Virus record (IMG/VR): IMGVR_UViG_2869947659_000007
Coordinates: 1-26,870 of that record
Length of the DNA: 26,870 nucleotides
Source of the DNA: a virus
Taxonomy: Duplodnaviria; Heunggongvirae; Uroviricota; Caudoviricetes
Direction: 5' to 3' (one strand)
Of the stretch, positions 23,901-26,870 are shown piece by piece. Position 1 is the stretch's first letter; every line of letters begins with the position of its first letter. A program made the position numbers.

Positions 23901-26870
23901 TGGTCCGCAGCACTTCGTGCACCCCCGGGTATTCTGGACTATTCCCGCGCCGCTATTTTTGCACTTATCCGAAGCGCACACCCTGAATTTTATCACTACC
24001 CGGGACGCCTTCAGGGGTATATCAACGCCTATTTGACGGAAACTGATCACGAGAACCCCAGCAAGGAAACTCTCACAGCTACCCGGCATACGCCGGAAAA
24101 AGATATCCTGGAAGAAATTAACCGCGAGGTGGTTACTGAGCGTGAAACAGAAGAAGAAAAACCACAACCATCTGACGCAATGGCAGGTGAACAGGCAACA
24201 ACTGAAACAATGGAACCGGATACAACTGAACATTGCCAGAACGCGCAGTCGCTGGATGCTCAGTCGCAGGTGAGTTCCGCTAACCAAGTAAAAGTCACCG
24301 CTGACGAAGTAAACAAAATTATGCAGGCAGCCAATATCAGCCAGCCTGACGCCGATAAGTTACTTGCTGTATCGCGTGGTGAATTTGTTGAGGGGATTAG
24401 CGACCCTAATGATCCGAAATGGGTCAAGGGGATCCAGACTCGCGATTCTGTGAACCAGAACCAGCATGAATCGGAACGGAACGACCAAAAAGCGGAACAA
24501 AACAGCCCAAATGCGTTACAAAACGAGCCAGAAACGAAACAATCCGAACCAGTAGCGCAACAGGAACCGGAAAAAGTCTGCACCGCCTGCGGTCAGAGCG
24601 GTGGCGGCAACTGCCCTGATTGTGGCGCGGTGATGGACGACGCAACATACCAGAAAACATTCGATGAAGAGAATCAGGTTGAAGTTCAGGAAAATGATCC
24701 GGAGGAAATGGAAGGCGCTGAACATCCACACAAGGAGAATGCTGGCAGCGCTCAGGACCACGCCAGCGATAGTAAAACTGGCGAGACGGCAGATCCCTTA
24801 ATTACGGTGAATGGTCATCACGAAATCACATCCACCAGCAGGACGTGTGACCATCTAATGATCGACCTTGAAACCATGGGAAAAAATCCTGATGCCCCGA
24901 TCATCTCAATAGGTGCAATATTTTTCGATCCGCAAACCGGAGATATGGGACCCGAATTTAGTAAGACTATCGATCTGGAAACTGCTGGCGGAGTCATTGA
25001 TCGGGACACCATTAAATGGTGGCTTAAGCAATCACGCGAAGCGCAATCTGCCATTATGACCGATGAAATCCCGTTAGATGATGCACTGTTACAATTGCGG
25101 GAATTTATCGACGAAAACTCCGGTGAATTTTTTGTTCAGGTCTGGGGAAATGGAGCCAACTTCGACAACACGATTTTGCGCCGTTCATACGAACGGCAGG
25201 GGATCCCCTGCCCGTGGCGTTACTACAACGATCGCGATGTACGCACAATCGTTGAGCTGGGGAAAGCCATAGACTTCGATACCAGAACGGCTATTCCATT
25301 CGAAGGTGAGCGCCATAATGCACTTGATGACGCTCGTTACCAGGCAAAATACGTTTCAGCTATCTGGCAAAAACTGATCCCGAGTCAGGCTGATTTTTAA
25401 TGTTCAACCCTAATTGCCGCTAACCGTATATAGTTAGCGGCGGTTATGAGATATAGCTATGAGCAGCTTATTTTTAACCGAAGATGAATTGCTAATATTA
25501 ACGGGCTGCAAATATGCAAGCCACCAGCGAAAATGGTTAATGGAAAACGAGCTTCCGTTCTATACCAATCGTAGTGGCAAACCGATTGTCAGCCGGGATC
25601 TATTTACCTGCAATAAAACTTTACCACCACGCGAGGTAGAGCCGAATTTTGGTGCGATCTGATGGGAAGACGAAGGAAAAATCCTGAGCACGAAAAATTA
25701 CCTCCAAATGTATACCCAAATAAATATAGTTATGTATGGAAACCAACATCCAGCGAATCTGTAACACTAACCGCCATCAAGGATGGTTTAGCTGCTTTAT
25801 GGAAAAAGTATGAGGAAACTGTAAATAATCGCGATCGTGCAATGACATTCGGTCGCTTGTGGGAAAAATTCCTCGCCAGCGCCTATTACAGTGACCTCAG
25901 TCCAAGAACACAAAAAGATTATCTGCAACATCAAAAAAGTTGCTTGCCGTATTCGGTAAGGTGCCGGCAGATTCCATAAAACCAGAACACATCCGTCGAT
26001 ACATGGACAAGAGAGGGGAACAGAGTAAAACGCAAGCCAACCATGAAAAAAGCAGTATGTCCCGCGTTTACAGTTGGGGGTATGAGCGAGGGTACGTGAA
26101 GGCTAACCCATGTGCAGGTGTAAGTAAATTCAAGGCCAAAAACCGCGAACGATATGTAACCGACAAAGAATACCAGGCAGTATTAAGCGTTGCACCTCTT
26201 CCTGTTTTTATCGCAATGGAAATTGCCTATCTGTGTGCAGCGAGGGTTTCCGATGTGTTATCGCTGAAATGGGAGCAGATTGGAAACGACGGGATCTTTA
26301 TCCAGCAAGGGAAAACAGGAAAAAAACAGATAAAAGCATGGAGTCCACGATTACAGGCGGCGATCGAAAAAGCAAAACAGTTACCAACATCCGCCTATGT
26401 AATCAGCAATCAATACGGCAACCGATATATGTACAAAGGCTTTAACGAAATGTGGGTAGAAGCAAGAAATCGCGCAGGCAAAATTTCAGGTATTTTAACC
26501 GACTGAGGTAGCCTGAGTTTAACGGACACTCCTTCCTGAAATAGAATGGCATCAGAAGGAGCTAATAATGAGCAGAAAAAACCAACGTTACTCTAAAGAG
26601 TTCAAAGCCGAAGCTGTCAGAACGGTTCTTGAAAATCAACTTTCGATCAGTGAAGGCGCTTCCCGATTATCCCTTCCTGAAGGCACTTTAGGACAATGGG
26701 TTACCGCCGCCAGAAAAGGGCTCGGTACTCCTGGTTCCCGCACGGTGGCTGAACTGGAATCTGAAATTCTGCAACTGCGTAAGGCGTTAAATGAAGCTCG
26801 CCTTGAGCGAGATATATTAAAAAAAGCAACAGCGTATTTTGCACAGGAGTCGCTGAAAAATACGCGTTAA

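Follow-up and report, generated by a model that had tools for sequence, protein, structure and literature searches.

The window, i.e. the whole stretch of 26,870 nucleotides that we analysed, closes on an integrase gene (int, 25662-26870) that is visibly broken and runs into an IS600 element. How was this gene inactivated, where did the missing part go, and is it this damage that keeps the prophage in place? We are highly confident that the feature is an integrase pseudogene and that it belongs to a cryptic lambdoid prophage of the serU-integrating CP-933U type; in this gene an A-run frameshift was followed by splitting by IS600 and then by rearrangement. For the comparison we used CP026766.1 (Shigella boydii), which is identical to the window over 16003-26870; this matching genome is most likely that of S. 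boydii 59-248.

An inherited frameshift in the integrase gene

The A-run at 25933-25938 is an A6 followed by G, while intact relatives from E. coli and phage have A7 (CAA AAA AAG, encoding Q91, K92 and K93). Alignment to the loci of E. coli FDAARGOS_536 (L001) and phage vB_EcoM-606R7 (L002) gave a single gap in the window against A7 and otherwise 97-99.6% identity. Addition of one A restores the reading ...YLQHQKKLLAVFGKVP..., exactly as in the intact homologues of 336-360 aa. The one-base deletion that the preliminary description had read from the A-run, proposing alignment to intact integrases as the check, is thereby confirmed. The 5' ORF (25662..25979, + strand) encodes 105 aa, of which 92 are native codons, with the arm-binding N-terminus MGRRRKNPEHEKLPPNVY..., and 13 are out-of-frame codons before the stop. 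The middle part of the gene (codons 94-281, 25940..26503, + strand) lies in the -1 frame, in an ORF that spans 25940-26506, and encodes the core-binding domain together with the first half of the catalytic one, where R195 and K218 lie.

A homopolymer error in sequencing or assembly would leave the gene really in frame up to IS600, and such indels are indeed common in long-read assemblies; moreover, one A is the sole local difference from the relatives. This reading, which the preliminary description had itself named as a possible refutation, is effectively refuted and keeps next to no probability. The exact 105-aa frameshift product was found in 141 index blocks of the assembly collection and was seen on 102 independent Shigella contigs. 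These stem from NCBI, ENA and Logan, an NCTC assembly of S. boydii among them, and in one source record the product is called 'integrase for prophage CP-933U [Shigella boydii]'. When A-run lengths were compared across 14 loci, A6 was present in all 11 Shigella-type loci fetched, which stem from different projects. Among complete E. coli genomes, 1145 carry this int, and none of them has the exact A6 80-mer. The frameshift is a genuine, inherited change, and is neither a chance pattern nor a sequencing error.

We inspected ten of the frameshift loci for IS600. In eight of them (L004, L005 and L007-L012) int is entirely free of IS600 and is followed by mtfA and yeeJ (for L004, blast showed collinearity through serU). 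The frameshift thus arose before the IS600 hit in the window, and independently of it. The other two (L003 and L006) have IS600 inserted elsewhere in int, at 26016-26018, with a separate 3-bp duplication, which appears in S. boydii L003 as a 3-bp overlap at these positions. Exact look-ups of the middle-part ORF left the 188-aa TTG-start version unmatched, and placed the 167-aa ATG-start version on one 4.68-Mb contig only; this latter match supplied the context downstream of the second IS600 copy.

Could strains with A6 only still make some full-length Int, through a leaky or programmed frameshift? A -1 slip of tRNA-Lys on CAA AAA AGT, from AAA 25935-25937 to 25934-25936 and followed by AAG and TTG, would yield the exact wild-type peptide (...HQKKLL...), and transcriptional slippage is conceivable as well. 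The sequence A AAA AAG belongs to the classic slippery motifs, as established for dnaX and the IS3 family. However, in the upstream frame the phase of the heptamer is wrong for tandem slippage, every intact relative simply reads in frame with A7, and two independent IS600 hits together with one IS1 hit in A6 alleles suggest that the gene was already free to decay. In the window the catalytic half is detached anyway, and we consider a leaky frameshift quite improbable.

IS600 and the detached 3' end

IS600 copy 1 (14603..15866, + strand) is a full-length element of 1264 bp, recognized by its HTH_Tnp_1 and rve domains and by its identity to annotated IS600; the identity to elements annotated 'IS3-like element IS600 family transposase' is 99.8-99.9% over 1264 bp. 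It has TG...CA termini with imperfect inverted repeats (TGAGGTAGCC... and ...GTACACCTCA) and two ORFs, one matching HTH_Tnp_1 (14667-14969) and one matching HTH_21, rve, rve_3 and rve_2 (15005-15823). Of copy 2 the window contains the left inverted repeat and orfA (26504..26870, + strand), and it ends at the orfA stop; CP026766.1 has the full 1264 bp (L013 10502-11765), with 2 mismatches compared to copy 1. Copy 2 starts at 26504 with TGAGGTAGCCTGAG..., where the homologues continue with TTCACCTTTCATGATCTGAAG (FTFHDLK), and the letters at its left junction are ...AACCGAC/TGAGGTAG. Since both copies lie on the same strand, the two are, as first described, direct repeats that bracket 15867-26503. 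RecA-dependent recombination between these 1264-bp repeats could plausibly delete the element that they enclose.

The GAC at 26501..26503 (+ strand) is the left copy of a 3-bp IS600 target duplication in int, relatives having a single GAC at this place. The second GAC is found at 12561-12559, where it heads a detached 3' fragment of int on the other strand (12364..12561, - strand; blast of L001, L004 and L014 to the window, and ORF listing). This fragment consists of 65 codons plus stop, reads D281...SGHK...LIYDRK...CH and contains H285, K288 (at the position of lambda R311), H308 and the presumed catalytic Y317. It is identical to the int 3' ends of the Shigella loci L004-L012 and has serU, mtfA and yeeJ as neighbours. 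IS600 consequently did cut off the N-terminal 281 codons from H-x-x-(R/K), His and Tyr, but it did not remove the catalytic region, as had been claimed: the remaining 65 codons persist in the window.

In CP026766.1, zinT begins 163 bp past IS600 copy 2 and is followed by msrQP, hiuH and hprRS, with no rest of int. Because zinT and not the int 3' end lies behind the element, we conclude that int was split by insertion and that the halves were then separated by rearrangement. A full-length integrase continuing past 26504, the other refutation that had been foreseen, was not seen there. The 3-bp GAC duplication does indicate that the event began as a simple insertion. That it is still one, with the rest of int and serU directly behind IS600 so that precise loss of the element would rejoin the halves, is extremely unlikely. 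The genes behind IS600 refute it unless CP026766.1 is misassembled at this place, and the int 3' end lies with serU at 12247-12561 on the other strand of the window. The flanking triplets of the two IS600 copies point in the same direction as separation by rearrangement. They are CAC/CTG for copy 1 and GAC/TCC for copy 2, so that each copy lacks a duplication of its own, which is what recombinant copies should show.

At 12561/12562 the int 3' fragment is fused directly to a baseplate and tail-fibre fragment (12562..14602, - strand), which has 94% identity to phage phiP27 37884-39369. It comprises a Mu Gp48-like gene (Pfam Phage_Mu_Gp48), tail-fibre genes and a tail-fibre-assembly gene of which the first 26 codons are present. 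S. boydii L003 shows how this last gene natively continues. The 3' part of the gene reads CCTGGCTTTTTT...; in the window, the GATGTCA of the gene is joined exactly to the GAC-bearing int 3' end (GATGTCA/GACTTCACC). ON470580, an E. coli reference with this int, has lambda-like tail genes, and in L003 the phiP27-like fragment runs on into an ipaH-bearing remnant beside otsA; for both reasons the fragment most likely belongs to a different prophage, joined through IS600.

IS600 is absent from the junction at 12561/12562. This is not what simple IS600 x IS600 recombination predicts, and an extra step is needed, namely loss of the element exactly at its termini. For the split of int, two single-step routes, replicative transposition within the molecule and one IS600 x IS600 inversion, were rejected, since each predicts IS600 at the int 3' junction. 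A crossover by a DNA invertase of the Gin/Cin type at the tail-fibre gene, judged by eye, was also discarded, as no 3-bp duplication shared with the IS600 end would be expected from it. The junction might be a natural footprint, left when transposase, following an IS600 x IS600 inversion, excised an IS600 copy exactly at its termini and the donor DNA was rejoined, but we regard this as rather unlikely; alternatively, the IS600-end-like CAGTATGATGTCA could have been used in place of a true end. On current understanding, IS3-family elements move by copy-out/paste-in and are not excised from the donor. Given this mode, a clean chromosomal IS600 excision scar would, if true, be mildly informative.

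The hundreds of IS copies in each Shigella genome can confuse assemblers, and one may ask if misassembly at repeats, and not biology, has parted the int halves. The chimeric 68-aa ORF that spans 12561/12562 is without record elsewhere, its exact look-up being unmatched, and the junction stands in one genome sequence. Nevertheless, the junction lies in unique sequence and not in a repeat, the retained GAC triplet is a specific biological signature, and the NCTC S. boydii assembly has an analogous IS600-mediated inversion that splits int at another site. An artefact is hence very improbable, and we take the rearrangement of the int halves as real.

Integrase family and the prophage remnant

The integrase aligns to lambda Int over its full length (E=1e-12), including the columns R212/K235/H308/R311/H333, with lambda R212/K235 matched by R195/K218. 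The phmmer alignment starts at residue 1 of both proteins (MGRRR...LPPN.Y) and covers the arm-type N-terminal domain (lambda Int residues 1-64), which is encoded intact at 25662-25937. An intact homologue, P0018, matches Pfam PF00589, PF22022 and PF14659. The window ORF 25940-26506 matches Phage_int_M (PF22022), and Phage_integrase PF00589 only over profile positions 24-123 of 172, so that both the catalytic and the preceding core-binding (SAM-like) domain of a lambda Int-type tyrosine recombinase are recognizable. The R-K-H-R-H-Y residues, however, are not on one polypeptide: R195 and K218 are encoded at 25940-26503, H285, K288, H308 and Y317 at 12364-12561 on the other strand, and the first 92 codons are set further apart by the frameshift. 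The window int is a pseudogene of the lambda Int-type family and not a functional member. The H-x-x-R box (lambda H308-R311), which the preliminary description had expected in the lost region, does not belong to this family; all close homologues have HDLK instead, which is a property of this integrase cluster and not of the window alone.

The surviving prophage segment lies between the two IS600 copies (15867..26503, from the gene list of L013 and the comparison with ON470580). It carries a 5'-truncated ydfU-like DUF968 gene, a hok-like gene, Ea22/DUF977 genes and a replication gene. Further genes are one in YdaT/cII position, one in cro position and an HTH repressor gene, and on the int side follow IS1, a truncated exonuclease gene, a DUF4224 gene and the int 5' part. 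Neither the gene list nor the comparison with ON470580 revealed any Q, lysis, head or tail genes in this segment, and ON470580 has counterparts contiguous with int only for its positions 18562-31473. No stretch of 13 nt or more from the serU/att region is repeated within the window or the 9.6 kb downstream of it; there is no attL nearby, and the attR side of the element is detached. An inducible lambdoid prophage would have its whole late region (Q, lysis, terminase, head, tail) as well as a pair of attL and attR sites, which are missing here; the element is a non-inducible early-region remnant.

Damage to int had been given as the reason why the prophage is locked in place. The element is immobile, but the causality does not hold: with no late genes, an IS1-truncated exonuclease gene, no attL nearby and a detached attR side, its immobility is over-determined, and it would be immobile even with an intact int.

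Directly upstream of int, in the excisionase position, lies a DUF4224 gene of 67 aa (25459..25662, + strand; Pfam PF13986, E=7.7e-13), annotated 'DUF4224 domain-containing protein' in E. coli relatives and apparently intact. The IS1 (768 bp, 22231..22998; Pfam DDE_Tnp_IS1) stands in for about 1.6 kb of the reference, comprising dicB and ydfD and, from the exonuclease gene, its initial 40 nt. An 858-aa exonuclease ORF at 22824-25400 is an artefact that starts inside IS1; the real gene lacks these 40 nt. Likewise, the 753-bp repeat of 1-753 and 22246-22998 is no duplicated phage early region but IS1, with identical copies and a DDE_Tnp_IS1 match. On the attR side, the family's integration target serU, a tRNA-Ser(CGA) gene (12247..12336, + strand; ARAGORN), is followed by mtfA (11356-12192, - strand; Pfam Peptidase_M90) and tRNA-Asn (11180-11255, - strand), and the order int-tRNA-Ser-mtfA-tRNA-Asn is common to E. 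coli and the phage record. Within 27 kb we count two IS1, two IS600 and another IS3-family element in yeeJ.

Order of events and known systems

An ancestor of several Shigella strains first lost one A of the A7 at Q91-K92-K93, truncating Int after the arm-binding domain. Later, and only in the window lineage, IS600 inserted after codon 281 with duplication of GAC, parting R195 and K218 from H285, K288, H308 and Y317. In a third step the halves ceased to flank a single IS: the 5' half with IS600 came to abut the zinT region, and the 3' half, with serU-mtfA-yeeJ, to lie about 14 kb away in opposite orientation, fused to the phiP27-like tail-fibre fragment. In what order and by what mechanism the rearrangements took place we infer from the junction sequences only: homologous recombination between IS600 copies (inversions) may have separated the halves, and one copy may then have been lost exactly at its ends.

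The closest known systems are the lambda-type integrases of serU-integrating lambdoid prophages (341-aa E. coli proteins, e.g. P0018), with 97-99.6% DNA identity to the window int. They share its neighbours (exonuclease gene, DUF4224 gene, tRNA-Ser, mtfA), its domain order of arm-binding N-terminus, core-binding and catalytic domain, and the Lys (HDLK) where lambda Int has Arg311. Unlike these intact genes, the window int is in three pieces, owing to the frameshift at codon 93, IS600 at codon 281 and the relocated 3' end. The element itself resembles Shigella IS600 (IS3 family) in its 1264 bp, TG...CA ends, imperfect inverted repeats and orfA plus orfB (rve/DDE). IS600 also has a 3-bp target duplication; here GAC is doubled relative to uninterrupted alleles, but one of its copies lies at an IS600 end (26501-26503) and the other at a junction that lacks the element (12559-12561). 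E. coli K-12 has comparable cryptic lambdoid prophages (Rac, DLP12, Qin), early-region remnants in its chromosome that form no particles and were eroded by deletions and IS insertions. Some of them can still be excised by their integrases, whereas the window remnant has neither a usable int nor paired att sites.

Shigella genomes have undergone an expansion of IS1, IS600 and other IS elements, and 11-24% of their interrupted genes carry an IS together with another inactivating mutation (Hawkey et al. 2020, PMC7373316). The window int is one more example of these IS-driven pseudogenes and rearrangements (PMC7373316), with no difference of substance; its decay is of an ordinary, already known kind, documented for Shigella. 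The case has little importance beyond correct annotation. Annotation should treat the locus as a single integrase pseudogene whose three pieces lie at 25662-25937, 25937-26503 and 12364-12561 (- strand), and not as separate 'hypothetical' or 'integrase' ORFs, nor as an 858-aa exonuclease. It can also serve as a worked example of the order of decay in Shigella: a point frameshift became fixed, independent IS600 and IS1 hits followed in different strains, and IS-mediated inversions probably scattered the pieces. To mark S. boydii lineages, one could use the A6 allele and the IS600 junctions that are specific to a strain.

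The A-run deletion and its age relative to IS600

Two plus-strand ORFs that differ in frame follow one another in the interval 25662-26870: one of 105 aa at 25662-25979 and one of 188 aa, counted from a TTG start, at 25940-26506. After them an insertion sequence begins. Megablast with window 25400-26503 as the query found DNA of this integrase gene (int) region in 1155 E. coli complete genomes and two phage records; the best matches have 99.6% identity and exceed the query by one base. When aligned with the loci of E. coli FDAARGOS_536 (L001) and phage vB_EcoM-606R7 (L002), the window has a single gap, which falls in the A-run: A6 at 25933-25938 here, A7 in both relatives, where it is read CAA AAA AAG (Q91 K92 K93). 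The intact integrase of these relatives has 341 aa and reads ...YLQHQKKLLAVFGKVP..., exactly the frame that the preliminary description had restored by adding one A. Its proposal that a one-base deletion in the A-run split int is thus borne out. A sequencing error, the alternative raised there, is excluded: the exact 105-aa product occurs in 141 blocks of the assembly-collection index and was seen on 102 contigs, and A6 is present in all 11 of the Shigella-type loci fetched, with A7 in all three E. coli or phage loci. One source record names the product "integrase for prophage CP-933U [Shigella boydii]". Of the 1145 E. coli complete genomes with this stretch, not one has the exact A6 80-mer; the best 12 of these 1145 matches cover 81 nt with one gap, which is A7. 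The frameshift is real and inherited.

Ten loci returned for the exact 105-aa product were inspected for IS600 in int. Eight (L004, L005, L007-L012) have int without IS600 and continue to mtfA and yeeJ, L004 being collinear by blast also through the serU tRNA position. The other two (L003 and L006, both S. boydii) carry IS600 at a different int site, marked by a separate 3-bp overlap (26016-26018). Thus, the A-run deletion preceded IS600, which entered an already dead int at least twice independently. In L003 and L006 this IS600 lies in the frameshifted int in the opposite orientation, and an inversion links the int 5′ part to a phiP27-like tail fragment that runs on into an ipaH (LRR/NEL effector) gene and then otsA. 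In L003, int is also cut by an IS1, at what corresponds to window position 26257, and the early region contains IS66-family insertions.

The catalytic region and the relocated 3′ end

An intact homologue aligned with lambda Int over residues 1 to 313 (E=1e-12) and matched the Pfam Phage_integrase, Phage_int_M and SAM-like domains. The alignment places lambda R212, K235, H308, R311 and H333 at R195, K218, H285, K288 and H308 of this family, and the spacing places Y342 at Y317. Since Y317 lies nine residues past the His, as in lambda, we infer that it is the catalytic tyrosine. Lambda Int has H308-E-L-R311, whereas this cluster has HDLK, with Lys replacing the second catalytic Arg (window 12538-12549, minus strand); the E. 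coli and Salmonella members examined (homologues P0017-P0023) all share HDLK. At 26504 the window changes to TGAGGTAGCCTGAG..., where relatives go on with TTCACCTTTCATGATCTGAAG (F-T-F-H-D-L-K), so that by this alignment the IS600 cut falls after D281, between K218 and H285. The region with HxxR and the tyrosine had been described as cut off by IS600; the cut does precede H285 and Y317, but the motif in this family is HDLK.

Moreover, the catalytic region is present, although its removal had been assumed. When the E. coli locus was compared with the whole window by blast, homology ended at 26504 and picked up again on the minus strand at 12561, from where it extends leftwards (L001 4103-5501 = window 12561-11176). 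Minus-strand 12561-12364 encodes the int 3′ end (...CH and stop), with every base as in the Shigella allele. It is followed by tRNA-Ser(CGA) (12247-12336), mtfA (11356-12192), tRNA-Asn (11180-11255) and the inverse autotransporter gene yeeJ (4918-10941), an order that is the usual chromosomal neighbourhood of the prophage in E. coli. The triplet GAC, single in uninterrupted alleles, here closes the 5′ part (26501-26503) and opens the 3′ part (12561-12559). IS3-family insertion is expected to make a 3-bp target duplication, an expectation that the other int insertion (26016-26018) supports; we take the GAC pair to be such a duplication.

The int 3′ end is polymorphic (window 12364-12400, minus strand; L001 4270-4313). 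L001 and L002 contain a 13-bp tandem duplication (AAGAAAATATTCC) and end in ...PENIPRKYSK and stop (341 aa); the Shigella allele is without it and ends in ...PENIPSNSTCDFCH and stop. The duplication may be the reason why RefSeq labels the L001 int "frameshifted" despite its open 341-codon frame.

IS600 copies and rearrangement

IS600 copy 1 (14603-15866, plus strand, 1264 bp) has TG...CA ends and two ORFs, orfA of the HTH type and orfB with an rve domain. Elements on Shigella and E. coli plasmids that are annotated "IS3-like element IS600 family transposase" match it from end to end at 99.8-99.9% identity. Copy 2, at 26504, equals copy 1 over all 367 bases present in the window. The ATG-start form of the second int ORF (167 aa) was found on a single contig, CP026766.1 (4,678,058 bp; locus L013), which is 100% identical to the window across the shared 10,868 bases (16003-26870). 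Copy 2 is 1264 bp long there and departs from copy 1 by a T/C difference at each of two sites, which correspond to 15739 and 15821. Both copies lie on the plus strand and are indeed, as first described, direct repeats bracketing 15867-26503. Through the difference at 15821 (L013 11720), the orfB stop TAA of copy 1 reads CAA in copy 2, whose orfB is six codons longer (278 vs 272 aa). The orfA/orfB overlap at 26815-26826 (orfA 3′ end) contains TTAAAAAAAGC, an A7-G run at which programmed -1 frameshifting of the transposase likely takes place; the run mutated in int is a motif of this kind too.

In CP026766.1, zinT follows 163 bp after copy 2, and then msrQ, msrP, hiuH, hprR and hprS. The E. coli order is zinT, yodB, prophage, serU, with zinT on the side opposite to the int end; it follows that, with respect to the chromosomal flanks, the block reaching from the tail-fibre fragment to the int 5′ part has been inverted. 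An inversion of this type, via its own int-borne IS600, occurred independently in L003, an NCTC S. boydii assembly. From these arrangements we infer that homologous recombination between IS600 copies separated the int halves. Copy 1 is flanked by the triplets CAC/CTG (14600-14605, 15864-15870) and copy 2 by GAC/TCC (L013 11763-11770); neither copy has a matching pair, and hence neither has a target duplication of its own, which fits an origin of both by IS600 × IS600 recombination. The copy 1 junction (baseplate fragment/IS600/ydfU′) is common to the window and L003, and is thus older than the int insertion in the window strain. A RecA-dependent deletion is a reasonable prediction, as the copies should be a good substrate (1264-bp direct repeats, 2 mismatches, 10.6 kb apart). 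The product, if formed, would read baseplate fragment-IS600-zinT.

A simple IS600 × IS600 inversion does not account for the junction at 12561/12562: it predicts IS600 there, and none is present. The int 3′ fragment is instead fused directly to codon 26 of a tail-fibre-assembly gene (window 12545-12575: ...CAGTATGATGTCA joined to GACTTCACC...), part of a phiP27-like baseplate and tail-fibre fragment (12562-14602, 94% identity to phiP27); the native continuation of this gene is seen in L003. Because IS600 is missing while both triplets, TCA and GAC (the int-borne IS600 target), are retained, one may speculate that a copy was later lost exactly at its termini. There is a loose similarity between the native sequence up to the break (CAGTATGATGTCA) and the right end of IS600 (CAGTACACCTCA). 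The junction could be an excision scar or reflect surrogate-end use. It was sought in a second assembly and not found.

State of the prophage and other elements

In the comparison with the nearest phage record, ON470580, only its positions 18562-31473 have counterparts adjoining int. The surviving stretch comprises a 5′-truncated ydfU-like gene, replication and immunity genes, exo, a DUF4224 gene and int; the block next to int has no Q, lysis, terminase, head or tail genes. At 22231-22998 an IS1 stands in place of about 1.6 kb; dicB and ydfD were lost with it, as were the first 40 nt of the exonuclease gene. A second serU/att copy of at least 13 nt was found neither in the window nor in the 9.6 kb downstream. 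The prophage is thus immobile, as had been concluded, but for several independent reasons, of which the integrase lesions are only two. Every Shigella species has undergone expansion of IS1, IS600 and other IS elements, and 11% to 24% of interrupted genes have an IS plus another inactivating mutation (PMC7373316). A doubly hit integrase in an IS-riddled remnant is therefore expected and is an already described kind of decay. The original observation was confirmed. Its interpretation was correct in part, but took no account of the displaced int 3′ end, of the rearrangement or of the order in which the lesions arose.

An 858-aa ORF at 22824-25400 is an artefact, as its start lies inside IS1. The two IS1 copies (1-753, within which the window begins, and 22231-22998) are 99.9% identical. 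yeeJ (3160-10941, minus strand; IAT_beta and 12 Big_1 repeats) is broken by a 1.3-kb IS3-family element at ~3778-5079, and its C-terminal piece resumes at 3160-3774. Between IS1 and the yeeJ end, 754-3187 (minus strand) carries a head-tail joining and tail module fragment with genes for a gp6-like connector, head completion, an HK97 gp10-like protein, tail completion and the tail tube; its identity to the reference serU prophage is only 67%, and it therefore derives from a different lambdoid phage.
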